20,000 nt of DNA from an uncultured Gemmatimonadota bacterium (GTDB lineage Bacteria > GCA-2686955), in assembly GCA_964490075.1 (NCBI GenBank), contig CAZBBK010000025.1:50548-70547 (forward strand), given 5' to 3'. This document shows, in pieces, positions 176-20,000 of this stretch. The position numbers were made by a program, and so were the translations under genes. A model generated the notes under the pieces. That model ran no database searches, was not told the origin of the DNA, and saw only the letters and a list, made by a program, of their open reading frames with translations. Numbering within the stretch: position 1 is the first letter of the stretch; every line of letters begins with the position of its first letter.

Positions 176-1123
176 TCACTCCCCCCGAATCCGCCGCTCG
201 GAGTCGCCCGCACCGCCCGGCCCGAGCAGCGCCAGGCGAATCAGCCCGGCGCCGCAGCGCAGCCGCGCCCGCCCCGCGCGCCCGCCTCGCAGCGGCACCA
301 CCAACACCCCCTCGACGAGGCGCGCCAGACCCGCCAGCGCGACCAGCGGCGCGATCCGCCGCCACGACCCCCCGCGCAGTGCCCAGTAGACCAGCCAGCT
401 ACGCCAGTGCTCCACGTGGCGCGCGGCCGACCAGGCCGGCCCGGTGCCGCCCCCCCGGTGATCCGCCACCGCGCGCGGCTCGTACTCCACATCGCCGCCG
501 AGCGCCCGCAGCCGATCGCAGAGATCGACATCCTCGCAGTAGAGAAAGAAGCGCTCGTCGAAGCCTCCCAGCTCGCGGAAGAGCGCGGCCGGCAGCAGCA
601 TCAGCGCCCCGCTGACCCAGTGCGGGCTGCACGCGAGCGCGCGCTCGGCGGAGACCATCCGCAGCGCGCCCAGGGCCGGAATCCAGCGCGCCAGGGCGTC
701 GAGGCGCAGCGCGATCAGCAGCAGATGACGCAGCGCCGGACGGCGCCCGAAGGAGAGCTCGTCGGCGCCATCGGGAGCGATCAGGCGCCCCCCGACCAGC
801 GCCCGCGGCCCGGCCGCCCGCGCCCGCTCCCAGAGCGCCTCGACGGCCCCCTCCCGCAGCTCCGCGTCCGGATTGAGAAAGAGCAGGAGATCGCCGCCGG
901 CCAACCGGGCACCGGCGTTGCAGCCGGCCGCGAAGCCGCGGTTGCGCTCGACTCGCACCAGGCGCACCCCCGGCGGAAGCGTGTCCTCGTTCACCCCCAT
1001 CCCCTCGGCATGCCCGTGATCGACCACGATCAGCTCGCAGCCCGCCGGCACCGCGGCCAGCGCGGCGTGCAGCCGCTCGCGCGCGCCGTAGGCCACGACG
1101 ATAACGCTAAGTTCTTTCCGCAC
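176..1123 (-). CDS. Glycosyltransferase family 2 (WbbL/RfbF-like GT-A fold)
   Basis: N-terminal LSVIVVAY, IVVDH, NRGFAAGCNAG, LLFLNPD, WVSGALMLL, GGFDERFFLYCEDVDLC are typical GT2 motifs. GTG start. Confidence 0.92.
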   Translation of the reverse strand: MRKELSVIVVAYGARERLHAALAAVPAGCELIVVDHGHAEGMGVNEDTLPPGVRLVRVERNRGFAAGCNAGARLAGGDLLLFLNPDAELREGAVEALWERARAAGPRALVGGRLIAPDGADELSFGRRPALRHLLLIALRLDALARWIPALGALRMVSAERALACSPHWVSGALMLLPAALFRELGGFDERFFLYCEDVDLCDRLRALGGDVEYEPRAVADHRGGGTGPAWSAARHVEHWRSWLVYWALRGGSWRRIAPLVALAGLARLVEGVLVVPLRGGRAGRARLRCGAGLIRLALLGPGGAGDSERRIRGE

Positions 1124-1130
1124 CAGTGCC

Positions 1131-1139
1131 TGCTATGCT
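1131..1139 (+). promoter_or_regulatory. Extended -10 element (TGcTATGCT), probable leaderless promoter of the aminotransferase
   Basis: TG-n-TATGCT ends 6 nt before ATG 1146; no Shine-Dalgarno in the 22-bp divergent gap. Confidence 0.6.
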
Positions 1140-1145
1140 GAAACG

Positions 1146-2276
1146 ATGACCGAGGTACGTCTCTCCGAGCCGAGCCTGGGCGCCCTGGAGCGCCGCTACG
1201 TGGAGCAGTGTATCGAGAGCGGCCGCCTGGCGGCGGGTGGCGCCTTCGAGGCCCGCCTGGAGCGCGAGATCGCCCGCCACCTGGAAGTGCCCCCGGCCCA
1301 GGTGGTCGCGTGCGCTTCGGGGACCGCCGCGCTGACCCTGGCGCTGCTCGAGCTGGAGGTCGGCCCCGGCGACGAGGTGGTGGTGCCCCAGCTCAGCTAC
1401 GTCGCTCCCGCCAACGCAGCTGCTTGCCTCGGCGCGCGGCCGGTGCTGGCGGCGGTCGACCGGCGCTCTGGGCTGCTCGACCCGGCCGAGCTGGAGCGCC
1501 TGCTGGCCGATCGCGCGCGGGCCCGCGGCCGGGCTCCGAAGGCGGTGATCGGCGTCGACCTGCTGGGCCGGGTGGCCCCCTGGGAGAGCCTGCTCGAGAT
1601 CGCCGACGCCCACCGCAGCACCTTGATCGAAGACGCCTGCGAGGCGCTGGGGGCGACCGGCGCCGGGGGGCGACCGGCGGGAGCCTTCACAGCAATCTCC
1701 TGCCTGAGCTTCAACGGCACCAAGACCGCCAGCGGCGGCTCGGGCGGCGCCCTTCGCCTCGCCGAGCCCGGCGCCGCCGACCGTGCCCGGATGCGCGCCA
1801 ACCACGGCCGCCGCCCGGGTCGCGACTTCGTGCACGAGCTGATCGGCGGCAACCTGCGCATCTCCAACCTGCACGCCGCCGTCGCATGCGCGCAGATGGA
1901 GCGCCTCGACGAGCTGATTCGGGGACGGCGCCGCGTCGGAGCGCGCTACCGGGAGGCGGTGCGGCGCCGCGGCTTGGCGCTCGACTGGCTCGCGGTGCCG
2001 CCCGGGACCCGTCACCTGGACTGGCTCCCCCCCTGCCTGGCGAGCGACGCCCAGACCCGCGAGCGAATCCTCGACGCCTGCGAGAACGAGAGCATCGAAG
2101 CCCGCCCCTTCTTCGCGCCGCTCCACCAGCTCCCCCCCTTCCGGGACTGCCCGCGCGGGAGCGGCGCGGCCGCCGAGGATCTCGCCGCGCGCGGCATTCT
2201 CCTACCCTCCTCGGCGTCGATGTCCGACGTTCTGGTCGACCGCATCGTCGACCTCATCGCACATTCCCTCCCATGA
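1146..2276 (+). CDS. DegT/DnrJ/EryC1/StrS family PLP-dependent nucleotide-sugar aminotransferase
   Basis: SGTAALTLAL, GPGDEVVVP, IEDACEALG (PLP Asp), SFNGTK (PLP Lys), GGNLRISNLHAAV, GILLPS. Confidence 0.93.
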   Translation: MTEVRLSEPSLGALERRYVEQCIESGRLAAGGAFEARLEREIARHLEVPPAQVVACASGTAALTLALLELEVGPGDEVVVPQLSYVAPANAAACLGARPVLAAVDRRSGLLDPAELERLLADRARARGRAPKAVIGVDLLGRVAPWESLLEIADAHRSTLIEDACEALGATGAGGRPAGAFTAISCLSFNGTKTASGGSGGALRLAEPGAADRARMRANHGRRPGRDFVHELIGGNLRISNLHAAVACAQMERLDELIRGRRRVGARYREAVRRRGLALDWLAVPPGTRHLDWLPPCLASDAQTRERILDACENESIEARPFFAPLHQLPPFRDCPRGSGAAAEDLAARGILLPSSASMSDVLVDRIVDLIAHSLP

Positions 2277-3349
2277 TCGCCCTCCTCCGCACGAAATCGC
2301 CGCCCCTCGCCGCCGCCGCCGCCGTCCTGATCGCCGGCTGCAACGATCTCTGCTGTGCCCCCGAGGGCGACCCGGCCGAGCTCGCGCTGCGCCAGGTCGT
2401 GCTCTCCGGCCGCCCCCTGGCCGGCGTCGTGGCCGATCCCGCGGGCTATGCCTGGACCTCGCAGGTGATCGGCCCCGGCTACCTGGTCTCCCCCGAGGGC
2501 GACACCGAGCGGCTCCAGGCCCCGATCGGCCTCGGCAGCGACCGTGCCGCCCTCGACCTCGATGCCGCCGGCCGTCCGATCTACGGCGTCTGGTACCGCG
2601 GCGTGGCGATCGCCGATCGCGCCGACTCCACCATCGACTACACCGTCTACGACGGCACCGGCGGCTGCCTGCCCTCGAACCGGGTCACCGCCGTGCGCGG
2701 CAATCCCGACGGCTCGATCCTGGTCGCCGTCGCCCGCAGCGAGGGCATCACCCGCGTCGACCCGGCCCAGGGCGGCGCTCCCTGCCCGCGCTGGACCTCG
2801 GAGAACAGCGCCATGGCCCTGGGTCCCGGCGTCGACGACACCGACGGCTGGATCGCCGGCATCAGCCAGGCCCGGAACGGCGAGCGTTGGGTCGCCGTCA
2901 ACCAGGACGCCCTCTATCGCTGGCGGGACGGCGGCACTCCCGCCGACCCCGACGACGACCAGTGGACCGCCTACCTGCCCTCCGATCGGCCGGAGCTCAC
3001 CTCCACGCAGTTCGCCCACCTGACCCGCGGGCCGCTCGGCGGGCTGTGGGTGGCGACCCAGGACGGACTGATCGTGGTTCGCGACGGAGTCTGGACCCGC
3101 GTCACCGAGCTGATCAGCCTCTCGGTGCAGCACGTCGATTTCGGGCCGGAGGGCTTCGCCTGGGTGTCGACCGGGGACGGAATCTCGGTGCTCTCGGTCG
3201 AGACCTTGCGCGAGCGGGCCCAGTACGGTCTCTTCTCCGGCCTGCCGGACCGCTCCGTCACCGCGATCGCCTTCGACCCCACCGGCACCTACGCCTACGT
3301 GGCCACCGGCGAAGGCATGGCGATCATGGACCGCGTCGACGGCGATTGA
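2273..3349 (+). CDS. Lipoprotein with Reg_prop-type beta-propeller repeats (358 aa)
   Basis: ATG 2273 overlaps the upstream stop (ATGA). Hydrophobic signal ending in lipobox LIAG-C23. Repeats LPSNRVTAV, GGLWVATQDGL, AWVSTGDGIS, GLPDRSVTAIAFD, YVATGEGMA. The ORF-track N-terminus (1208-2272) is a shadow frame of the aminotransferase. Confidence 0.8.
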   Translation: MIALLRTKSPPLAAAAAVLIAGCNDLCCAPEGDPAELALRQVVLSGRPLAGVVADPAGYAWTSQVIGPGYLVSPEGDTERLQAPIGLGSDRAALDLDAAGRPIYGVWYRGVAIADRADSTIDYTVYDGTGGCLPSNRVTAVRGNPDGSILVAVARSEGITRVDPAQGGAPCPRWTSENSAMALGPGVDDTDGWIAGISQARNGERWVAVNQDALYRWRDGGTPADPDDDQWTAYLPSDRPELTSTQFAHLTRGPLGGLWVATQDGLIVVRDGVWTRVTELISLSVQHVDFGPEGFAWVSTGDGISVLSVETLRERAQYGLFSGLPDRSVTAIAFDPTGTYAYVATGEGMAIMDRVDGD

Positions 3350-3360
3350 CGCGCCTTCGA

Positions 3361-5046
3361 TCAGCCCTTCACGATGTTGTCGATCACCAGGTAGGTCGTC
3401 GCCACCTGCCCGACCACCGCCACCAGCTCGCGGAAGAGCTGCCAGTAGTCGCGCGGTTCCTTTCCTGGGATCCAGATCGTGTCGCCGGGGCGGATCGGCG
3501 TCTCGTCGTCGAGCTCCAACCACTGGCCGGTCGACCCGGCCACCAGCCGGCGCTCGCTGCGGTCGGCGCGATCTGTGGTGCCGCCCGCCCGCTCCACATA
3601 GTGGGCGAAGCCGGCTCCCTCCAGACGCGCGTAGCCGCCGGGCCGCATCACGGCGCCGGAGACGTAGACCATGTCATCGCGGCTCGGCACCCGAATCGCA
3701 TCGCCGGCGCGCAGCAGCGGATTCTCGGACGGATCGTCGAGATCGTCGAGCGCCACGTAGATCACCCGCGCCGCCAGCATGCGGCGCTGCAGCTGGTACT
3801 CGAACTCGCCGTGCTCCTGGATCGCCCGCGGAGTCATCCGAATCCGATCGGTGGTCGGATCGAGGCGCAGATCCTCGCCCTCGCGCATCACATAGGTCTC
3901 GTGTGAGACCGCCTCGGCCGTGAATCCGCCGGCCAGCAGCAAGATATCTCGGACGGTGTCCTCGTCGGGCAGCAGCGGGTATTGGCCGGGGAAGCGCACC
4001 GCGCCCTCGACGGTCACGGTGGCCGGGGCTCGGCGCTCCGCAGAGGAGGGCACGAAGATATGGTCCCCCGGCTCGATCTCCGCCAGCGCGGCGCGCGCGG
4101 CGTTGGTGATCACCCGATCCCCATTGCGGCCGGCGCGCTTGATGAGAATGAACTCCGACGCCTCGGCGGTGACACCGCCCGCCAGACGCAAGAGATCGAG
4201 CGCGCTGTCGTGGGCCAGGAGCTCGTAGACACCAGGCGCATAGACCGCGCCGTCGATGCGCACCAGCTGGCGATCGCTCGGAATCACCAGCCGGTCGCCA
4301 CCCCGCAGCACCGGGTTCTCGGCTCCCGGCCAGCCCAGCCGGGCGGCGGCCGCGTCGATCGGCCGCGGGGGCTCGCCGGCGCGGTGCAGGTAGACCCGGC
4401 GCCATTCGGGAGCGATCGGGGCGGCCTCCTCCGCCGCTTCCGGTTCCTGCTCCGCCAACCGCTCTTCCTCCTCGACCTCCGGCACCACGATCTGGGCCGT
4501 GCGCAGACCGCTCGGACCGACGCGCGCCTTGCCCAGGGCCTCGTCCAGCACATCCGTGACGCGCGTGAAGGGGGTCGCCAGGAACTCCCCCGGAAAGGGC
4601 ACCGCGCCCGCCAGCCGGACTCGGAAGGTGCGCGTGTTGCGCAGCCGCACCTGGATCTCGGCGCCGGGGTAGTAGCGCTGAAGAGTGGCGGCGACCTGGC
4701 GCTCGGCCTCGGCGACCGAGAGCCCGTCGACCTGCAGCGCACCCCCCGGTGTGACGGTCAGGGAGCCGCTCGGACCCACCCACTCGAAGCGCCGCTCCTC
4801 GGCATCGCCGAGGATCAGGATCTCGAGCTGATCGCCCGGACCGAGGGCGTAGGTCGAAGGGTCGACCGCGCCGGGCGGCACCGTGGTGGCCACCGGCGCT
4901 CCGGCCGCCCCGGTCGCTCCCGCGTCGCCCCCGAGAGAGAGGGCGCCGGGCAACAGATCCTGCGGCTCCAGGGCGCGCCCGCTGCCGGCCAGAGCGAGGA
5001 TCGAGACCGTCGCCGCCGCCACGACGCGCTGCACGCGACTCATCAT
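3361..5046 (-). CDS. Polysaccharide export protein (Poly_export domain plus multiple SLBB domains; Wza/KpsD-like)
   Basis: Start ATG 5046 overlaps the rmlA-like stop (ATGA). Signal-like N-terminus, YALGPGDQLEI, repeated SLBB motifs (LAGAVPFPGEF, IDGAVYAPGVY, VEGAVRFPGQY, VSGAVMRPGGY; LxxAGG; xxGDxIxVP), C-terminal hydrophobic helix. Confidence 0.88.
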   Translation of the reverse strand: MMSRVQRVVAAATVSILALAGSGRALEPQDLLPGALSLGGDAGATGAAGAPVATTVPPGAVDPSTYALGPGDQLEILILGDAEERRFEWVGPSGSLTVTPGGALQVDGLSVAEAERQVAATLQRYYPGAEIQVRLRNTRTFRVRLAGAVPFPGEFLATPFTRVTDVLDEALGKARVGPSGLRTAQIVVPEVEEEERLAEQEPEAAEEAAPIAPEWRRVYLHRAGEPPRPIDAAAARLGWPGAENPVLRGGDRLVIPSDRQLVRIDGAVYAPGVYELLAHDSALDLLRLAGGVTAEASEFILIKRAGRNGDRVITNAARAALAEIEPGDHIFVPSSAERRAPATVTVEGAVRFPGQYPLLPDEDTVRDILLLAGGFTAEAVSHETYVMREGEDLRLDPTTDRIRMTPRAIQEHGEFEYQLQRRMLAARVIYVALDDLDDPSENPLLRAGDAIRVPSRDDMVYVSGAVMRPGGYARLEGAGFAHYVERAGGTTDRADRSERRLVAGSTGQWLELDDETPIRPGDTIWIPGKEPRDYWQLFRELVAVVGQVATTYLVIDNIVKG

Positions 5047-5780
5047 TCGCACGCTCGCCGCGCCGCGGCCGCCTCGGCGACCAGGTCGGTTGCGCGCCGC
5101 AGGGAGTCGAAGGTCCCGGCGTCGGTCCACCAACCATCGAGGACCGAATAACGCATCTCAGCGCGCTCGATGAAGTGGTTGTTGACGTCGGTGATCTCGA
5201 GCTCGCCGCGCGCCGAGGGCTCGAGTCCCTCGATGATCTCGAACACCGACGCGTCGTAGAGATAGACACCGATCACGGCATAGGAGCTGGCCGGCCGGGT
5301 CGGCTTCTCGACGATGCGCACGATCCGCTCGCCCGCGATCTCCGGCACGCCGAAGCGCTCGGGATCGGGCACCTCCTTGAGCAGAATGCGCGCCCCCCTG
5401 GGGCTCTCGCGAAACGCGGCCACCGCGGGGGCGATGCTCTTCTCGATGATGTTGTCGCCCAGGATCACGGTGATCGGCTCGCCCTCGGCGAAGTCCTTGG
5501 CCAGCGAGAGGGCGTCGGCGATTCCCCCTTCGCCCTCCTGGTAGGCGTAGTGCATCCGCTTCAGGCCGAAGTCCTTGCCGTTGCGCAAGAGCTTCAAGAA
5601 GTCGCCCGCCGAGTCGCCGCCGGTGACCACCAGGATCTCTTCGATGCCGGCATCGACCAGCTTCTCGATCGGGTAGAAGATCATCGGCTTGTCGTAGACC
5701 GGCAGCAGGTGCTTGTTGGTCACCCGGGTCAGTGGATTCAGCCGGGTGCCGAGACCGCCGGCCAGAATGACGCCCTTCAT
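5043..5780 (-). CDS. rfbA: Glucose-1-phosphate thymidylyltransferase-like sugar nucleotidyltransferase (short RmlA/SpsI type, 245 aa)
   Basis: MKGVILAGGLGTRLNPLT, NKHLLPVYDKPMIFYP, LGDNI, SARGELEITD, WWTDAGT. ATGA overlap with the ugd stop. Confidence 0.88.
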   Translation of the reverse strand: MKGVILAGGLGTRLNPLTRVTNKHLLPVYDKPMIFYPIEKLVDAGIEEILVVTGGDSAGDFLKLLRNGKDFGLKRMHYAYQEGEGGIADALSLAKDFAEGEPITVILGDNIIEKSIAPAVAAFRESPRGARILLKEVPDPERFGVPEIAGERIVRIVEKPTRPASSYAVIGVYLYDASVFEIIEGLEPSARGELEITDVNNHFIERAEMRYSVLDGWWTDAGTFDSLRRATDLVAEAAAARRACE

Positions 5781-7099
5781 GACGCGACGCTCCCGCGGCC
5801 GAAGCCGTCGTAGTGGAAGCCGGCCTCGATCACGTTGGCCGGGTCGTAGATGTTGCGGCCGTCGATCACCACCGGGTTCCTCATCGACTCGCGCACCCGA
5901 TCCAGGTCGAGCTCCTTGAAGGCATCCCATTCGGTGACCACCACCATGGCGTCGCAGCCTTCCACGGTCTCGTAGACCGAGCGGCAGAGCTCGACATCCC
6001 AGCCGTGGCGAAGCGCCTCCTCGCCGGCCACCGGATCGTGGGCGCGCACTCTCGCCCCGAGCGCGCGAAGCTCGGCGATGATGCGCTCCGAGGGGGCGGC
6101 GCGCAGGTCGTCGGTGTTGGGCTTGAAGGAGAGCCCGAGCAGGCCGATGGTGCGCCCTTTCAGATCGCCCAGCACCCGGTGGAGCTTCTGGATGACGCGC
6201 AAGGGCTGCGCGTCATTGACCTTCATCACCGCGTCGACGATCTGCAGATCGTAGCCGGCGTTGGCGGCGATCTCCAGCAAGCCCTCGGTGTCCTTCGGGA
6301 AGCAGGAGCCGCCGTAGCCGATGCCCGCGTGCAGGAACTTCGGCCCGATGCGGGAGTCCATCCCCATCCCCTTGGCCACCGTGTCGATGTCGGCGCCGAC
6401 CCGCTCGCAGACGTTGGCGATCTCGTTGATGAAGCTGATCTTGGTCGCCAGGAAGGCGTTCGAGGCGTACTTGATCATCTCGGCCGACTCGACGTTGGTC
6501 GAGATGATCGGCGTCTCCAGCGGGGGGATCGAGAGCGGATCGTAGATGGTGCGCATGATGTGCAGCGCGCGCGCCGAGCTGCAGCCGAGCACGATCCGGT
6601 CGGGGCGCTTGAAGTCGTTGATCGCCGAGCCTTCGCGCAGGAACTCGGGGTTGGAGACGATGTCGAAATCGAACTCCTGCTCCTGCCGGCTGCGGATCAG
6701 ATCCTGCACCCGGGCCCCGGTTCCGGCCGGCACGGTGCTCTTGTTGACGATCACCTTGTAGCCGTTCATGTAGCGGGCGATCTCCGCGGCCACCGCCTCT
6801 ACGTACTTCAGGTCGACACCTCCCCCCTCCTTGGGCGGCGTGCCGACGGCGATGATGATCACCTCGGAATCGATCACGCCCTCGCGCATCGAGGTGCTGA
6901 AGGAGATGCGCTCCTGCTTCTGGTTCTGCTGCACGAGCTCGGCCAGTCCGGGCTCGAAGATCGGCATGATCCCGTTCTCGAGGCCGTCGATGCGGTCCTC
7001 GTCGATGTCGACGCAGATCACCTCGTTGCCGAGGTCGGCCAGGCAGGTGGCGGTCACCAGACCGACATAGCCGGCACCGACGACACAGATCTTTTTCAT
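5777..7099 (-). CDS. ugd: UDP-glucose/GDP-mannose dehydrogenase family (UDP-glucose 6-dehydrogenase)
   Basis: GAGYVG NAD-binding motif, NKSTVPAGT, SNPEFLREG, KYASNAFLATKISFINE, GYGGSCFPKD (catalytic Cys), FKPNTDDLR. GGAG upstream of ATG 7099. Confidence 0.95.
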   Translation of the reverse strand: MKKICVVGAGYVGLVTATCLADLGNEVICVDIDEDRIDGLENGIMPIFEPGLAELVQQNQKQERISFSTSMREGVIDSEVIIIAVGTPPKEGGGVDLKYVEAVAAEIARYMNGYKVIVNKSTVPAGTGARVQDLIRSRQEQEFDFDIVSNPEFLREGSAINDFKRPDRIVLGCSSARALHIMRTIYDPLSIPPLETPIISTNVESAEMIKYASNAFLATKISFINEIANVCERVGADIDTVAKGMGMDSRIGPKFLHAGIGYGGSCFPKDTEGLLEIAANAGYDLQIVDAVMKVNDAQPLRVIQKLHRVLGDLKGRTIGLLGLSFKPNTDDLRAAPSERIIAELRALGARVRAHDPVAGEEALRHGWDVELCRSVYETVEGCDAMVVVTEWDAFKELDLDRVRESMRNPVVIDGRNIYDPANVIEAGFHYDGFGRGSVAS

Positions 7100-7193
7100 T
7101 TTGGGGGCTGCTCCGGAGGGAGGCGCGCGGGCGCAAAACACGGCCCGCTATGGAAGCGCTCAGGCGGCTCTTGGTCAGTGGATAAACGTTGCG

Positions 7194-8548: not shown

Positions 8549-8956
8549 CTACTCCGACGGCCGCCAGGCCCGCCCAATATCGGTCTGGGAGAAGTCGTCG
8601 CCTTTGAAGAGCAGCGGCAGACCACGCACCTTGGCCAGCGCGTAGCCGAAGAGGCCGCCGAAGTTCAGCTCGGTCTTGTGCCCGCTCCCCTTGCCGAAGG
8701 TCACGAATGCGGCATAGGCGGCATCCATCTCGGCCGGGCCGGGGGGGACGAGCTCGAAGACGGGCAATCGCAGCAGATCGTCCAGGAGCAGCACCGCACG
8801 CTGGCCGCGCCGGCCGTGAACCACCAGGCGTGCCTCGACGACCGAGACCGTGCTGATCAGGGCCCGCTCGGCTTCCTGGAGCAGACGCACGAAGACATCG
8901 CGCTCGGGCTGCGCGAAGACGATCGCCACCAGGGCAGAGGTATCGACGACGATCAT
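8549..8956 (-). CDS. vapC: PIN-domain toxin, VapC family (VapC30-like), possibly inactive
   Basis: MIVVDTSALVAI, VSVVEA, LNFG(G)LFGYALAK, PLLFKGDDFSQTDI. ATGA overlap with the antitoxin stop. Confidence 0.92.
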   Translation of the reverse strand: MIVVDTSALVAIVFAQPERDVFVRLLQEAERALISTVSVVEARLVVHGRRGQRAVLLLDDLLRLPVFELVPPGPAEMDAAYAAFVTFGKGSGHKTELNFGGLFGYALAKVRGLPLLFKGDDFSQTDIGRAWRPSE

Positions 8957-9192
8957 CGTGGCAGGCCCTGCGGGTTCCACTCGAGCGGGTCATGGGCATC
9001 GGATCGGTCGGGGATCAGATCGAGCTGAGCCAGCAGCGCGGCCATGCGTTCATTGACCCCGATTCCGCAACCGACCTCGTTGAGCAGACGATCCACCGCC
9101 CGTTCGACCGCGGCGGTCTTGGTCAGACCCGCGATCTTCGCCAGCTGCTCGACTTTGCGGACGACCGTGGGATTGGCGATTTGCAGCGCCAT
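8953..9192 (-). CDS. vapB: VapB antitoxin (Rv0623/VapB30-like ribbon-helix-helix, 79 aa)
   Basis: MALQIANPTVVRKVEQLAKIAGLTKTAAVERAVDRLL and C-terminal WNPQGLPR match this family's pattern. Directly upstream of vapC; GGAG RBS. Confidence 0.88.
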   Translation of the reverse strand: MALQIANPTVVRKVEQLAKIAGLTKTAAVERAVDRLLNEVGCGIGVNERMAALLAQLDLIPDRSDAHDPLEWNPQGLPR

Positions 9193-9225
9193 GGCACTCT
9201 CCGGAATAGTGAAATAACCATTGTC

Positions 9226-9254
9226 AATATACATTCCGATGATGCCGCTGGCAA
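9226..9254 (-). promoter_or_regulatory. Sigma70-type promoter of vapBC (TTGCCA-N17-TATATT)
   Basis: Minus strand -35 at 9254-9249, -10 at 9231-9226, 17-nt spacer, in an AT-rich patch. Short inverted repeat CGGAAT...ATTCCG (9202-9238) spans the -10 and may be the autorepression operator. Confidence 0.7.
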
Positions 9255-9294
9255 TCATGCCCGCAGCCCGCGCCAAGGGCCCTTCTCGCCCAGA

Positions 9295-10008
9295 TCAGGA
9301 CGCCCCACTCCCCATCTGCTCCACCAGCGCCATCGTCGCCGCGCGCGGATCCCGCGCCTGCGTGATCGGCCGCCCCACCACCAGGAGGTCGGCGCCGGCC
9401 GCGATCGCCGCCGCCGGGGTCGCGACCCGGGCCTGATCCTGGACCGCGCTGCCCGCCGGCCGGATGCCAGGGGTGACGATCAGCGCATCGGGGTCGAGCG
9501 CCCGGCGCAGCGCCGCCGCCTCACGGGCCGAGGCCACCACGCCGGCCAGTCCCGCCCGACGACCGGCGCGCGCCCGCTCGAGCACCTCGCTCGGATCGCC
9601 GACCGCCCGGCTGGTGAGCACCGTGATCCCGAGAATCGCCGGCGCCGCCACCGTGCTCTTCGCTGCCTGCTCCGCCGCCCCTTCGAGCGCGGCGCGCAAC
9701 ATCTGCTCCCCGCCCGCGACGTGCACCGTCAGATAGCGCACGCCGAGCGCGGTGGCGGCCCGGCAGGCGCCGCCGACCGTGGCCGGAATGTCGTGGAACT
9801 TCAGATCGAGAAAGAGGTCGAAGCCGAGCTCCGCCAGCTCCTCCAGAGCCCGCGGACCGCTCGCCACGAAGAGCCGGGGGCCGATCTTGACGGTCTTCAC
9901 CAACCCCACCAGGCGCCGCGCCAGCGCCAGGGCGGGAGCGAGATCCTCGTAGTCGAGCGCCACGGCGAGGCGCGATTCCGGCTTCGGCAGCAGGGTCGGC
10001 TGCGGCAC
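9295..10008 (-). CDS. pyrF: Orotidine-5'-phosphate decarboxylase
   Basis: LAVALD, VKIG, FLDLKFHDIPATV (catalytic DxKxxD), TVHVAGG, ITVLTS, VTPGIRP, DQARVATP, LVVGRPIT. Confidence 0.96.
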   Translation of the reverse strand: MPQPTLLPKPESRLAVALDYEDLAPALALARRLVGLVKTVKIGPRLFVASGPRALEELAELGFDLFLDLKFHDIPATVGGACRAATALGVRYLTVHVAGGEQMLRAALEGAAEQAAKSTVAAPAILGITVLTSRAVGDPSEVLERARAGRRAGLAGVVASAREAAALRRALDPDALIVTPGIRPAGSAVQDQARVATPAAAIAAGADLLVVGRPITQARDPRAATMALVEQMGSGAS

Positions 10009-10089
10009 GGGGGACCGTCCTTTCTTGGAAGGGTCCCCCAGGGTGCCGCGGCCCGCGCGATCGGGTCAATCCTTTCGCCCGGCTTGCGC

Positions 10090-10095
10090 TAATCT
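10090..10095 (+). promoter_or_regulatory. -10 element (TAATCT), probable leaderless promoter of the sulfatase-like gene
   Basis: TAATCT ends 6 nt before ATG 10102; no SD. Confidence 0.55.
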
Positions 10096-10101
10096 CGCGC
10101 C

Positions 10102-11496
10102 ATGGGATCGATCGCGCTCGCATTCTCGACTCTGCTCGTTCTGGGGCAGGTCACGCCGCAGGCACCGGAGACGGAGCAGCAACCCCTCGGGGGCGGGATC
10201 GTGCTGATCGTGATCGACACTCTCAATCCCGCCCGCCTGGGCTGCTACGGGGGACCGGCGGCCACGCCGACGATCGACTCCCTGGCGGCCAGCGGCTATC
10301 TCTACGAGGACGTGTGGTCGGAAGCGACCGTCACCGCGCCGGCGATGGCCTCGATCCTCACCTCGCGCCACCTGGTCGGACACGGCGTGCTGCGCAACGG
10401 CGACTTCATCGACTCGGAAGTCGCCCGACTGCCGCAGGAGCTGCGCCGCAAGGGTTACCGAACCGGAGCCTTCGTCTCCAACGGGGAGCTCGATTCCGGC
10501 TTCGGCTTCTTCCGCGGCTTCGATCTCTACGACGATCAGCTCAACCGGGTCGAGCGCAACCGTCCCAACATCTTCGAGCGGCTGGCGCCGGACACGGTGG
10601 AGCGCGCCCTCGACTGGCTGGGGCTGGTGCGCCACGAGTTCTTCTTCGTGCTGCTGCACCTGAACGACCCCCACGGACCCTACGACCCGGTTGCCGGGCT
10701 GCCGGCCAAGAGGAGCACCGGCAAGAGCCTGAAGATCTCCCGCGACAACTTCCCGCGCGGGGCGATTCCGGCCTACCAGGCGCTGCCCGGGCGGCGCGCC
10801 AGTGGCGACTACCTGGCCGCCTACGATGCCGAGATCGAGCAGGCCGACCGGGCGCTCGACAACTTCTTCGCGGGTCTGCGCGCGTTGGGCGTGGCGGAGC
10901 GGACCGTGACGGTGCTGACCGCCGACCACGGCGAATCGCTCGGCGCCCAGGGCCTCTACTTCCAACACGGCTCGGGCCTGGGCGAGGAGCAGCTGCGGGT
11001 GCCCCTGATCTTCACCGGACCGGCCCTGCGCCAGGGCCGCAGCGCGCGCGCCGTCTCGACCCTCGACGTGATGCCGACCCTGCTGGCGGCGGCTGGGATT
11101 CGGCTGCCGGGTCTGGCCGGCGTGAGCCTGCTGCGCGACCTGACCGGGCGCGCCGGGGTCACCGTCGAGTCGCGCATGCGCCATGCCACTCTGTCGGCTC
11201 CGCTGCGGCCGCGCATCGACGGCCAGTGGACCCTGATCCGCGCGGTGTCGAAGGATGGCTGGAAGCTGATCCGCGACCGCCGCCGCCACCGCGTGCAGCT
11301 CTTCGATCTGAGCTCCGATCCGCACGAGGAGCACAACCTGGCACGGCGCCGCAAGCACCGGGACAAGCTCGAGGAGCTGGACGCCCTGATCCAGGAGTGG
11401 GAGGTGCGCCACCCGATCCCGGAGAAGTGGAAGCACAGCTGGCTGCCGCCCACGCGCGAATGGGCGCGCCTGCGTGCGCTGGGCTACATGGATTGA
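10102..11496 (+). CDS. Secreted sulfatase-like / alkaline phosphatase superfamily hydrolase
   Basis: Signal-like N-terminus, LIVIDTL, TPTIDSLA, GYRTGAFVSN, GFDLYDD, HLNDPHGPY, YDAEIEQAD, TADHGE, DVMPTLL, LFDLSSDPHEEHNL, LRALGYMD. Confidence 0.9.
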   Translation: MGSIALAFSTLLVLGQVTPQAPETEQQPLGGGIVLIVIDTLNPARLGCYGGPAATPTIDSLAASGYLYEDVWSEATVTAPAMASILTSRHLVGHGVLRNGDFIDSEVARLPQELRRKGYRTGAFVSNGELDSGFGFFRGFDLYDDQLNRVERNRPNIFERLAPDTVERALDWLGLVRHEFFFVLLHLNDPHGPYDPVAGLPAKRSTGKSLKISRDNFPRGAIPAYQALPGRRASGDYLAAYDAEIEQADRALDNFFAGLRALGVAERTVTVLTADHGESLGAQGLYFQHGSGLGEEQLRVPLIFTGPALRQGRSARAVSTLDVMPTLLAAAGIRLPGLAGVSLLRDLTGRAGVTVESRMRHATLSAPLRPRIDGQWTLIRAVSKDGWKLIRDRRRHRVQLFDLSSDPHEEHNLARRRKHRDKLEELDALIQEWEVRHPIPEKWKHSWLPPTREWARLRALGYMD

Positions 11497-15798: not shown

Positions 15799-17280
15799 AT
15801 GGCTCGCTACCACCTCTCATGCGTTCTCGCGTCGGCGGCAGTCACCGCGCAGGGCGCTACCCTACGAGTGCCCGCCGACCATCCAACCCTCCGCTTGGCC
15901 ATCAGCGCCGCCTCGCCCGGAGATACCGTACTCGTCGCGCCGGGGACCTACACCGGGTCCGGCAACCGCGGCCTCACGCCCAAGAGCGCGATGACGATCC
16001 GATCGGAGCGCGGCCCCTCGGCGACGATCATCGATTGCGAGTATCGGAATCGGGCGTTCTTCTTCGAGGGCTACTCGAACGAGGCGCTCGTGGCCGGGTT
16101 CACGATTCGCCATGGTGCGGACCCGCCGATCGGCTGGTACGGCGCCGGAGTGGTGTTCTGGAACTGCACGGCGGAGATTCAGAGCTGCATCATCGAAGAC
16201 GGGGAGTTCGTGAGCGAGGGTGGCGGCATCGCGTGCTGGGGCGAAGGACACCACCCGCGAATCACCAACTGCATCATTCGCCACAACCAGGCGTCGAAAG
16301 GGGCCGCGATCTACGCGGTCCAGCCATCGGTCACCATCGAGAACTGTCTCATCACTCAGCACAGCTCCGATTCACTGCATTTCTCCGGTGTGCCGGTCGC
16401 ATTGGGTTCCGGTGCCAAGACGCTCGTTTCCGGCTGCGCGATCGTGAACAACCAGAGCCACCAGCAGGCGGCGGGATTGGAAGCCGGTGATGGATCGATT
16501 CGCCTCCACAACACCGTGGTAATGGACAACACTCTGGATCCACGCTACGCATATTCAGCCGCGTCGGCACTGTTCCTGTCGGGAAGCGCCGAGGTCGAAG
16601 CCTCCAATTGCGTGTTCGCCGCCAATCGCCTGAACAGCTACGCCGGCGGCGCCATCATGGTTCGAGGCCGGGCCGAGCTGAATGCCACGAACTGCACCGT
16701 GGCGGACAACGAATGCGGGCGCGGCACCAGCATCGTCTGCGCCAAGAGCGGCGTGATCCGACTCGAGAACATGATCGTCCGCGGCGCCGGGGATTCCGTG
16801 CTGGTCGTGCAAGACGACGCCGAGCTCAGCGCGACCTATAGCAACATAGAAAGCGGCTGGCCGGGACTGGGCAACGTGGACCTGGATCCCGACTTCCTCA
16901 CCTTTGCCGGCATGCCCTATCTGTTGCACCCCTTGAGCTCCCCCTGCATCGACACGGGCAATCCGGCCATCGAAGACGACATCTACGACTGGCATCCGCG
17001 CTGGCCGGCGCGCTTCGAGAACGACGCCCATTCCGACATGGGAGCGTACGGCGGACCCGACAACCGATCCTGGGCCGCGTTCTTCCAGCGCGCCGAGTTG
17101 GCCGGGACCCAGCTCGATCTCGAGAGAGCGTGGGAGGCGTGGATTCAGCGGAGCTACCTCGAGAGGACCTCGTGGATTCCGCGCGCGGCTTCCATCACGA
17201 CGTCGAGCTTGTGCCAGGCAGCCCAGTTCTCACACCAGGCTACTCGAAAAGAGGCATACGCAGAGGTAGAGGCAGATTGA
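15799..17280 (+). CDS. Secreted right-handed parallel beta-helix repeat protein
   Basis: GAGGAGG RBS, signal peptide ending TAQG-A, LRVPADHPTL, VAPGTY, TIIDC, GGGIAC/PRITNCII repeats, GNVDLDPDF, SPCIDTGNP, DMGAYGGP. Confidence 0.85.
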   Translation: MARYHLSCVLASAAVTAQGATLRVPADHPTLRLAISAASPGDTVLVAPGTYTGSGNRGLTPKSAMTIRSERGPSATIIDCEYRNRAFFFEGYSNEALVAGFTIRHGADPPIGWYGAGVVFWNCTAEIQSCIIEDGEFVSEGGGIACWGEGHHPRITNCIIRHNQASKGAAIYAVQPSVTIENCLITQHSSDSLHFSGVPVALGSGAKTLVSGCAIVNNQSHQQAAGLEAGDGSIRLHNTVVMDNTLDPRYAYSAASALFLSGSAEVEASNCVFAANRLNSYAGGAIMVRGRAELNATNCTVADNECGRGTSIVCAKSGVIRLENMIVRGAGDSVLVVQDDAELSATYSNIESGWPGLGNVDLDPDFLTFAGMPYLLHPLSSPCIDTGNPAIEDDIYDWHPRWPARFENDAHSDMGAYGGPDNRSWAAFFQRAELAGTQLDLERAWEAWIQRSYLERTSWIPRAASITTSSLCQAAQFSHQATRKEAYAEVEAD

Positions 17281-19945
17281 GAACTGGGGCGGCACGCCAG
17301 GCCTCATCGTCGATGGACCGGACCTTCGCAAAGCGGGCATCCAGACCACGAATCCGCACTTGCTCCAACCACCGCTCCGCTTGATCCACTGAAAGACCCC
17401 GCTCGAGTAGAGCATCTGACAACCACTGGTACTCCTCACGGATGTTAGTCGCGAAGAGGTAGGGGTCATCCGACCCGACCGCAATCGACACATAGTCACC
17501 ATCGTCTTCGTTCGATGGGGGGCGCAGTCGCCAAAGTCCATGGTGGGAGAGATCGCCTGCGTTTTCGATCAGCACATTAGACGTGGGATTCACCTCAACG
17601 ATCAGGCCTCGTCGACCGATCTCCCTGATCAACGATCTTTGTACTTGCGTCAGCGCGCCAGCGTCTCCATCCATCACCGGGTGGCAATCGACAAGCCGTC
17701 GGCCTCGTACATACACGGACTTGTCCGTCAAATAGGCCCACACCAGCTTTTGCGCCCGTGGGATACGTCGCATTGGCCGGTACCCGCTGACAAAACCGAG
17801 GGTCGCGAGCACCGGCTGGGAGTATAGCCCATCCAGCAGGGCCAACAGGTCCGTCATAGACACCGGAAAACCAAACCACTCTTGGCCCAGTTGCTCGGCC
17901 GTGTACCGAATCCAAACCAAACGCCCGGGGGATGCCGGTAGACGCCAAGCGGAGTAGCGTCGCCACTCCCAGGCCAAATCCAAGACACGATCCTCCAGGG
18001 GAATGCTCAAAGGACCCGAGTCGCGAGCCCAGGCTTCGCAATCCACTCCCGCGGCGAAGGCGTGACCAAGGCGGTCGCCCTCACGCAGACCGAGATATCG
18101 AAGGCACTCGGAAACCCGGCGCAGGCCCGTTGCGAGGTGTACGAAATCTTCGCCGCAGTGGACGGTTCTCCGAATTGCCGCTTCCGGTCTGTTGTAACTA
18201 TCACGATTAGGATCTCCCCGCGCGATTAGGGACGCCGCTTCAGATACGTAGTTGAAGGCAGGGGCAACAACCCAATTCGGTACGCCTGACTCGTCGGCGG
18301 CACAATCGATACCGCAAATCAGTTGACGAGCCCCCAAGTAGGTGTTGAACGCGCCAATGATTGAGGACGCTGCGTTTCGTACTGCCAGAAAGGCCCTACG
18401 GTATCGGTATCCTTGGCTCAAGTGATCGGGATTGGCCAAGGAGCACATTCCCGCTACGCTAGGGGTTTCAAGATCGGCCAGCTCACCGCGGTTCTTCCGG
18501 AAATGCAGCACCACGCCATACTCGAGCTCTCCTGCCGCTGGGATATCCCGCTTCGCTCGCAGAATCCCACGATTCACCTCCCTCAGTTGTTCCCTCAGCT
18601 CGAACGCGTCGGTATCAGGCCCGAATCTGATCTCCAGTGATCGAAGGCCCGCCCCGAGACCTGCTGTACTTGCGCCCGCGTAGGCCAGTCGGTCCATCGA
18701 CACTCGGTTGCGCAGCGGAGACATGCGTCCATAATGGCGAATGAATGAAAGCAAGCTCGGCGTGCGAGGTCGCTGGACGACGTAGCGGTAGAACAGACAT
18801 TGGATTCTGACGACCTGCCAGAAGTACCTCTCGAAGCCCTCGTCCGGCTGCCCTCGTCCTGTCTGCTCGTCTATGTATTCCAGCGCCCGGATGCACCAAC
18901 GGAGATCCGCGTGCCTCGCCGATTGCCCCCGTCGCGGAAATACCAACTCCACTGGATCGCTGTTGGATCCTGTCGTTGGCCCACCTTGGATCCTCTGATA
19001 GATCCACTGCAATTCCCAGTAGTTCGCCCCCCATGGATCACGTCTGCTATTCAATCGCCCCCTCAGAAGCTCTTGGAGCCCAAGCCCCAGCTCTCGCGTC
19101 TCGGGAGGACTAAGGCGAGAAAACACTTCCCTAATGTAGTCAAAGAACCGTACATCATTGGGGCGCGACGACCAGGCCAGGAATCCAGCAATAAGCAGGC
19201 GCGCGATCGCAGCTCGAAGTAGCCATGGAGCAAACTCTCGTCCCTCGGTGAGCTCTGCGCCAGAACTAAAGAAGCTCCGTGGATCATGTATCCGAGCAAT
19301 CTCGCTCATGAGAGCCGCCCAGTAGTCTCGGAATCTGGGCATCGCCCCTAGATGGCAGTGCACCTCCGCATATCCCCGCTCGAAGAGCCTTCGCGACAGA
19401 GAGGGCGAGAGAGCCTCCACCTCTACGGACGATACACCTGGATTGGCCAACACTCCGGCCGCAAGAAGATCCTCCGGTAGTGCAAACTTCAACCAGCGCC
19501 ACGCGCGCCGCGCGAGAGGACCATCGAGCAGCATGCGTTCATCAGCCGGCGTCGCCGGCTTCCCGCTGTCCGCATTGGCCGAACTCGGAACGAGCGGCCG
19601 CACCTTCGGCCGAGCGGCCCCCTCTTCGATCTCAAGGTAGCGTCCGGAAATCTGCCGCAAAAGGTCCGCCAATGGAACAGCCACTGGGGCGGTGGGATCG
19701 ACACATGAGAACCACAGCTGATCTCGCAACAAAGCGATCTCGTCCACCCGCAGAGTCGGCGCTTCCCCCAGGATCGACTTCTCGGCCTCGCGCCAAAACG
19801 AGTTGTTACGAGAATCCCTGATCAAAGACGGACCCGCAACTGCAGTCACTCCCATTCGGAAACTCGCCTCCGACGCGAACGGAAATGCGCATAGCTCAGC
19901 CACGGCATGTTCGACAGGCGCGCCGATTCGGCGAAGTTGTGGCAT
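17240..19945 (-). CDS. rdrB: Large adenosine deaminase-family protein, RdrB-like (RADAR anti-phage effector type)
   Basis: Complete ADA motif set over 901 aa: EVHCHLG (HxH), LEIRF, GIDCAADE, TVHCGEDF (His, catalytic Glu), GDRLGHA, EVNPTSNVLI, GSDDP. HxGEDFxHLxxGLR..E..GDRLGHA is recalled as the RdrB pattern. Lower GC than the flanking genes. Confidence 0.72.
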   Translation of the reverse strand: MPQLRRIGAPVEHAVAELCAFPFASEASFRMGVTAVAGPSLIRDSRNNSFWREAEKSILGEAPTLRVDEIALLRDQLWFSCVDPTAPVAVPLADLLRQISGRYLEIEEGAARPKVRPLVPSSANADSGKPATPADERMLLDGPLARRAWRWLKFALPEDLLAAGVLANPGVSSVEVEALSPSLSRRLFERGYAEVHCHLGAMPRFRDYWAALMSEIARIHDPRSFFSSGAELTEGREFAPWLLRAAIARLLIAGFLAWSSRPNDVRFFDYIREVFSRLSPPETRELGLGLQELLRGRLNSRRDPWGANYWELQWIYQRIQGGPTTGSNSDPVELVFPRRGQSARHADLRWCIRALEYIDEQTGRGQPDEGFERYFWQVVRIQCLFYRYVVQRPRTPSLLSFIRHYGRMSPLRNRVSMDRLAYAGASTAGLGAGLRSLEIRFGPDTDAFELREQLREVNRGILRAKRDIPAAGELEYGVVLHFRKNRGELADLETPSVAGMCSLANPDHLSQGYRYRRAFLAVRNAASSIIGAFNTYLGARQLICGIDCAADESGVPNWVVAPAFNYVSEAASLIARGDPNRDSYNRPEAAIRRTVHCGEDFVHLATGLRRVSECLRYLGLREGDRLGHAFAAGVDCEAWARDSGPLSIPLEDRVLDLAWEWRRYSAWRLPASPGRLVWIRYTAEQLGQEWFGFPVSMTDLLALLDGLYSQPVLATLGFVSGYRPMRRIPRAQKLVWAYLTDKSVYVRGRRLVDCHPVMDGDAGALTQVQRSLIREIGRRGLIVEVNPTSNVLIENAGDLSHHGLWRLRPPSNEDDGDYVSIAVGSDDPYLFATNIREEYQWLSDALLERGLSVDQAERWLEQVRIRGLDARFAKVRSIDDEAWRAAPVLNLPLPLRMPLFE

Positions 19946-20000
19946 TAGGTGTCATGCTCCCACAATTCCTGCCGCAAATCGGGCCAGAGATTCCGCAAGT
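19945..20000 (-). CDS. 3' end of a probable upstream partner gene (partial, product unknown)
   Basis: Minus frame ...LRNLWPDLRQELWEHDT* ends in TAA overlapping the deaminase ATG (TAATG). An alternative open frame ...LAESLARFAAGIVGA* stops at 19952. Only 56 nt visible. Confidence 0.4.
   Translation of the reverse strand, partial: LRNLWPDLRQELWEHDT

Follow-up and report, generated by a model that had tools for sequence, protein, structure and literature searches.

What is the large deaminase-like protein encoded at the very end of a contig from an uncultured Gemmatimonadota bacterium, and does it belong to a defence system? The window analysed here is the whole stretch of 20,000 nucleotides at positions 50,548 to 70,547 of contig CAZBBK010000025.1 (assembly GCA_964490075.1), and represents the last 20 kilobases (kb) of that contig. 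It contains an intact open reading frame (ORF) of 901 codons with an ATG start, identified from the ORF listing and its translation at 17240-19945 on the minus strand. In an earlier note, made from the sequence alone, the product of this ORF had been described as an enlarged, catalytically intact protein of the adenosine deaminase (ADA) fold and proposed as the effector of a RADAR-like system. The description has been borne out by the ORF and its five motifs, all found at the noted places, and the proposal is backed by curated family models, sequence profiles, a whole-length match of the predicted fold and the arrangement of the genes in relatives. The ORF is very probably the rdrB gene of a RADAR system, whose partner gene rdrA, encoding an AAA+-type ATPase, would have been located directly upstream and lost at the contig break. 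In RADAR, RdrB forms a dodecameric hollow shell on which heptamers of RdrA dock. By homology with the Escherichia coli system, the ATPase would sense the infection and dock on RdrB.

The 901-residue deaminase-fold protein

A chance frame is excluded by relatives that match the ORF in a protein search, the best of them at an E-value of 5e-155. The rdrB-type gene encodes an ADA core with three RdrB-specific insertions, and each of the five deaminase motifs is present once. The motif HCH (residues 196-198; 19352..19360, minus strand, as are all five) provides the first two metal-binding histidines, HCGE (residues 596-599; 18149..18160) the third histidine and the catalytic glutamate, and RLGH (residues 625-628; 18062..18073) the last catalytic histidine, after which the third insertion starts. 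They are followed by NPTSN (residues 786-790; 17576..17590) and by SDDP (residues 825-828; 17462..17473), which contains the Asp-Asp pair of the ADA active site. In an alignment of 65 sequences, H196, H198, H596, E599, R625, G627, H628, N786, S789, N790 and D826 are invariant, and D827 is nearly so. HCGE and RLGH align with HVGE and DRLGH of the E. coli-type protein, and the histidine tetrad H196/H198/H596/H628 and E599 correspond to H152, H154, H498, H530 and E501, the residues given for the active site of E. coli RdrB in passages of PMC9994260. The spacing of the motifs, with 195 residues ahead of HxH, 397 from there to HCGE and 157 from RLGH to NPTSN, agrees with the N-terminal extension and the two insertions, after HxH and after RLGH, that had been noted before.

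RdrB is the only family that the curated models rank above plain deaminases for this protein. The PADLOC RdrB models matched it with E-values of 7.1e-33 and 4.9e-25, and the NCBIfam RdrB model reached 8.7e-40, whereas the best model of a plain adenosine deaminase gave 4.3e-08. A branch profile constructed from 16 relatives retrieved the cryo-electron microscopy (cryo-EM) chains of E. coli RdrB from the PDB with an E-value of 2.5e-61 (profile positions 337-864), followed by ADAs near 1e-9. The structure predicted by AlphaFold from the 65-sequence alignment is a confident one and attained a predicted local distance difference test (pLDDT) value of 89.3 and a predicted template modelling (pTM) score of 0.93. 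In a Foldseek comparison of this model, the top eight rows were all RdrB chains (E 6e-27, TM 0.64/0.74), and the best ADA had a TMq of 0.27. The model superposes over its whole length on E. coli RdrB, with residue 18 of the model equivalent to residue 1 of the chain.

Passages of PMC9994260 on the RdrB structure describe three insertions in the ADA core, namely an N-terminal extension, an insertion that splits the core and another located after the last catalytic histidine. All three are present in the 901-residue protein, as revealed by the superposition of the predicted fold. The N-terminus, which the earlier note was unable to place and considered potentially novel, is conserved across the branch and equals the first of these known insertions, because the model aligns from residue 18 to chain residue 1.

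Compared with RdrB of the E. coli P0304799.3 type (PDB 8fnv, 8fnw and 8hr7), the window protein is about 100 residues longer, and its first ~330 residues lack pairwise sequence similarity. The alignment with Cad1, the CARF-fused ADA of type III CRISPR systems, is limited to the core. The 901-residue protein gave no match to the PADLOC CARF_ADA model for a CARF domain of the Cad1 type, and RdrB is the structure on which its N-terminal part superposes.

Could the protein be instead a housekeeping adenosine or adenosine monophosphate (AMP) deaminase acting in purine salvage? A triosephosphate isomerase (TIM)-barrel amidohydrolase core and the catalytic residues are common to it and to the housekeeping ADAs (TIGR01430, PF00962), and the Pfam A_deaminase threshold is passed, if barely, with 29.2 bits against 27 in a match confined to residues 766-845. 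This explanation is nevertheless refuted by the score of the NCBIfam adenosine deaminase model TIGR01430 (32.6 bits, under the cut-off of 216.55, and over residues 766-845 only); by a length 2.5 times that of an ADA, a housekeeping enzyme having about 330 residues and neither the insertions nor an ATPase partner; by the three RdrB insertions; by the tree described below, where the protein is grouped with the RdrB types and apart from the ADA-like paralogues of its own genome; by the absence of the gene from the four other genomes of the phylum; by its foreign base composition; and by its pairing with an ATPase gene in relatives. The probability that it is a housekeeping enzyme is considered negligible.

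The RdrA-like partner in relatives and the contig end

The branch to which the protein belongs is large, mostly uncultured and annotated as 'hypothetical protein'. A word-index protein search returned 18 relatives (best identity 37%), and a scan of species genomes located relatives in 164 DNA stretches. An exhaustive profile search of metagenomes yielded 4513 representatives at E<=1e-3, 3487 at 1e-10 and 2524 at 1e-30; the metagenomes contain at least 150 clusters at 50% identity, and all 150 listed score at least 825 bits. The analyses of loci were conducted with the best 80 of the 164 relatives, and the record titles name at least 10 phyla. Corallococcus, Archangium, Actinoplanes, Jiella and Desulfoluna butyratoxydans are among the cultured bacteria that carry members of the branch.

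An RdrA-like ORF is located directly upstream of the deaminase gene, on the same strand and ending at its start, in 73 of the 80 loci, and the remaining seven have fewer than 650 bases of upstream sequence. The pair is therefore never separated in the loci with room for it (73/73). A partner profile was built from 60 of the upstream ORFs, so that 13 of the 73 matches were new to the profile. The alignment of this family with seven RdrA-type proteins by hhalign gave a probability of 99.4 (E 3.5e-21) over 341 columns in the ATPase half, and its best match in the PDB was E. coli RdrA (5.5e-10, the next being 1.2e-3). The NCBIfam RdrA model was the commonest match among the partners (42/48, best 1.4e-15), Pfam AAA_16 was detected in 26 of 30, and the G-x-G-K and D-D columns are conserved in the family, in which the Walker A (G-x-R-G-x-G-K-T), Walker B and sensor motifs of an AAA+ core homologous to that of RdrA are present, along with D-D-x-D. 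The C-terminal halves of the partners are not alignable to known RdrA; the same lack of C-terminal similarity is described for RdrA proteins generally in passages of PMC9994260. On sequence comparison, the partner family of the relatives is a distant RdrA homologue, contrary to the different partner that had been suggested before.

In the window itself, the 3' end of an upstream gene, comprising 17 codons and a TAA stop (19945..20000, minus strand), precedes rdrB. From its position and the gene order in relatives it is presumed to be the remnant of rdrA. The TAA overlaps the ATG of rdrB by one base (TAATG) on the same strand. The span of 17240 to 20000 previously assigned to the deaminase gene is thus correct for 17240-19945, whereas bases 19946-20000 belong to this other gene. 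Start codons overlap the partner's stop in 41 of the 73 loci of relatives, mostly in the form NTGA, and the TAATG/TGATG form occurs in 4/73; because NTGA is frequent by chance, the overlap allows no inference on coupling. The C-termini of the partners are not conserved in relatives and offer no comparison for the 17-codon remnant.

The contig (C25) ends at base 20000 of the window, 55 bases upstream of the rdrB start. The assembly consists of 136 contigs and is 95% complete, and for this reason a gene missing at a contig end is unremarkable. The last 15-127 bases of the contig had no overlapping match among the other contigs of the assembly, and a scan of metagenome contigs for a continuation by 34-base exact matches returned nothing. 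The DNA past base 20000 is therefore irretrievable. Contig ends of low G+C and ORFs running off contig ends were also listed genome-wide, and no rdrA candidate was found among them.

Placement among RADAR types and competing explanations

Other RADAR-type pairs were gathered from plasmids of Aliivibrio, Salmonella, Pantoea, Bacillus cereus, Cetobacterium, Rhizobium and Aureibacter by tblastn; on the Aliivibrio plasmid, rdrA and rdrB are annotated as such, and the pairs of Bacillus cereus, Cetobacterium, Rhizobium and Aureibacter are unannotated. The type modelled by NCBIfam NF041743/NF041744 and by PADLOC PDLC02217/02218, represented by Aliivibrio pVSAL840 and Salmonella pIndS104-CTX, is the one that we take to be the Citrobacter rodentium type. 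This type and the window branch have in common the two-gene order rdrA-rdrB and a conserved catalytic C-terminal third, and the branch profile matches the former at positions 535-864 only. In hmmsearch, that profile gave 181-193 bits with the Salmonella, Rhizobium and Aliivibrio proteins, 224 with Aureibacter, 227 with Pantoea, and 345 with Bacillus and Cetobacterium, where nearly the whole profile is covered.

Aligned over 583 residues (E 6e-37), the 901-residue protein and the E. coli-type RdrB are 27% identical, whereas the E. coli type and the annotated Aliivibrio rdrB product share 21-24% identity (E 7e-20). As the window RdrB is closer to the E. coli type than that type is to the Aliivibrio protein, it falls, as far as sequence can tell, inside the known diversity of RADAR. 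The three tested RdrB proteins have a mutual identity of just 24-28%, in the C-terminal part only, according to passages of PMC9994260, which also report RdrA C-termini and RdrB N-termini without sequence similarity among validated RADAR systems. The novelty of a divergent branch, raised in the earlier note, is not upheld, for the distance to the E. coli-type RdrB is no greater than that between two validated RADAR types.

The relationships were further analysed in a quick IQ-TREE phylogeny (LG+G4, 33 rows), rooted on the two ADA-like paralogues of the genome. All 31 RdrB-type rows are placed past a branch with support of 100, apart from this outgroup. The window branch (24 rows, support 99) is nested within the RdrB types, and a Bacillus/Cetobacterium/Aureibacter group is its sister (support 97). 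The same picture emerged from a 72-row FastTree tree; both trees were flagged for long branches. Scoring with RdrB profiles, comparison of a predicted structure with the RdrB cryo-EM models and a tree including ADAs had been suggested as checks, and each of them places the window protein with RdrB, away in the tree from the ADA-like paralogues. The plasmid pairs of Bacillus cereus, Cetobacterium somerae and Aureibacter contain the nearest relatives of the window RdrB outside its branch. They form clades separate from it (support 99) in hosts of low G+C, have the same gene order and are annotated as 'hypothetical protein'; no experimental test of these pairs was found in literature searches. 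The two paralogues that served as outgroup are near each other in the tree and are ORFs of ordinary size, 416 and 453 residues, at C112:126-1376 (L002) and on C14 (L003, 424-1785).

Several observations weigh against the identification as an RdrB of a RADAR system. The score of the NCBIfam RdrB model (NF041744), 137 bits, is far under the equivalog cut-off of 800. This model seems to cover one subtype only, because a Pantoea-plasmid deaminase of the E. coli type, which matches the solved E. coli RdrB with 1675 bits, is annotated as 'hypothetical protein' in RefSeq and attains 90 bits on PADLOC RdrB, compared with the 112 of the window protein. Among the partners of the relatives, PADLOC RdrA is weak (12/18, best 5.9e-10). 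In the genome itself, the partner is reduced to the 17 codons of the upstream ORF. A search for RdrA elsewhere in the assembly with the NCBIfam RdrA model gave a single P-loop match at E 0.43, and the profile built on the 60 upstream ORFs found nothing better than E 0.012, again P-loop noise. Of the 140 columns with a conservation of 85% or more in the branch, the window RdrB deviates at 18, the median being 6 and its count the third highest of 65, and at five of these 18 the remaining 64 sequences show no variation; this excess could reflect relaxed constraint. Finally, the acidic triplet E595-E597, which passages of PMC9994260 describe as essential for the 3-fold interface of E. coli RdrB, is not conserved and aligns with a gap, a gap and Pro in the pairwise alignment of the window RdrB, so that the same assembly as in E. 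coli is not assured.

The lack of an RdrA-like gene in the assembly searches and the excess of changes at conserved columns, together with a long end branch of 1.13-1.38 in the two trees, would fit an RdrB that is orphaned or in decay, lacking a functional RdrA or having some other gene upstream, and either inactive or repurposed. However, the 901 codons are intact and every catalytic residue is kept, the stop of a same-strand upstream ORF overlaps the start of rdrB, the pair is constant in relatives, and in so fragmented an assembly the lack of a gene at a contig end is unremarkable. An orphan protein is therefore thought to be improbable.

A second alternative retains an RdrB-like shell and an RdrA-like ATPase and attributes to them a different chemistry, acting on another adenine nucleotide or producing a signal in place of the depletion of ATP/dATP. 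The first 90-150 residues have no profile match to other RdrB types, which together with the unalignable C-terminal halves of the partners and the unconserved E595-E597 patch would be consistent with such a function, and a deaminase product as immune signal is described in a bioRxiv abstract (10.1101/2024.12.20.629578). Nevertheless, the residues for metal binding and catalysis are shared with E. coli RdrB, on which the fold superposes in its entirety, while dissimilar RdrA C-termini and RdrB N-termini are already known among the validated systems covered in PMC9994260. A different chemistry is thus held to be quite improbable. The branch might also represent a separate RADAR subtype, with an RdrB devoid of the acidic 3-fold patch and an RdrA whose C-terminal half has no relation to those characterised, and for that reason with another assembly, phage trigger or preferred adenine nucleotide; this reading is regarded as rather unlikely.

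As a RADAR RdrB, the window copy would be expected to have an RdrA partner, an E. coli-like assembly and substrate, and a role in defence. A new mechanism is not revealed by it, since the fold, the active site and the partner family match those of the E. coli system. Its identification adds RADAR to a phylum represented by five species genomes in the collection searched. Moreover, the members of this large RADAR branch from the environment carry the annotation 'hypothetical protein' and score far under the curated RdrA and RdrB cut-offs; for these reasons the prevalence of RADAR may have been under-counted by surveys. Table S1 of PMC9994260 lists 270 RADAR systems, and literature searches for further papers on RADAR phylogeny or on RADAR in myxobacteria found none.

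Origin of the gene and surroundings of the loci

The base composition of rdrB is foreign to its genome. Its G+C content is 0.596, about 3 standard deviations lower than the genome mean of 0.684 (standard deviation 0.028), and 0.32% of 4019 windows are as low; at third codon positions (GC3) it has 0.63, compared with 0.77-0.93 in the neighbouring genes. Within the five species genomes of the phylum, three of them in the family and one more in the class, the gene was found in its own genome only (1/5), and it was absent from the 40 other relatives searched (0/40). The low G+C, the absence from the four other genomes of the phylum and an RdrB gene tree discordant with taxonomy indicate that rdrB was probably acquired horizontally. 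The stop of rdrB and that of a convergent beta-helix gene (15799-17280, plus strand) overlap by 41 bases at 17240-17280, which marks the inner edge of the foreign segment, as the shift in G+C and GC3 begins there. Scans of the rdrB region for promoters, terminators, tRNAs and repeats gave nothing above chance.

The loci of the relatives exhibit additional features. The RdrA-like gene is broken over two or three frames in L008, L033, L058 and L084, either by frameshifts or by assembly errors, and in L014 another RdrA-like ORF, with a weaker match, is encoded on the opposite strand 4.4 kb downstream (17023-19569, minus strand). A known defence family is encoded within 6 kb in 9 of 16 loci (E<=1e-10), a count without a random-locus control. 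PADLOC mad2, mad3 and mad8 matches (E 1e-16 to 1e-49) are located within 6 kb of the pair in six of the 16 (L016, L025, L038, L042, L045 and L053) and thus represent a recurrent neighbour.

A conserved third gene was not found: the ORFs downstream in 14 loci belong to unrelated Pfam families or to none, with the exception of SLATT_2 in L084, and those of 16 loci had no PADLOC match. In L084, a Fibrobacter relative from the window branch, the SLATT_2 gene (9691-10269, E 4e-19) directly follows the deaminase gene, as does an annotated SLATT gene on the Aureibacter plasmid (L091, 6295-7002). A SLATT gene in this position resembles a RADAR accessory that we take to be RdrD. In acidobacterial relatives, an ORF of 262-283 residues, in the same orientation as RdrB, begins at the stop of the latter or shortly ahead of it (L025, 12868-13719; L029, 12877-13665; L036, 12877-13668; L055, 12825-13628). 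No Pfam or PADLOC family was detected in the three that were scanned (L025, L029 and L055), and this ORF may represent an accessory gene that accompanies a sub-branch.

The remainder of the window is ordinary chromosome according to Pfam, with polysaccharide genes, an alanine racemase, an orotidine monophosphate (OMP) decarboxylase, a sulfatase, a TetR regulator, two beta-helix proteins and a PIN-domain gene. A cluster for polysaccharide synthesis and export extends over 176-7141 and comprises a family 2 glycosyltransferase, a DegT aminotransferase, a Poly_export/SLBB protein, a nucleotidyl transferase and a UDP-glucose dehydrogenase; the stretch 2276-3360 inside it has no clear gene call. The PIN-domain protein (8549-8980, minus strand; Pfam E 7.9e-15) is preceded by a small overlapping ORF (8953-9276, minus strand). 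Both are located between the alanine racemase gene and pyrF, and they may constitute a toxin-antitoxin pair of the VapBC type.

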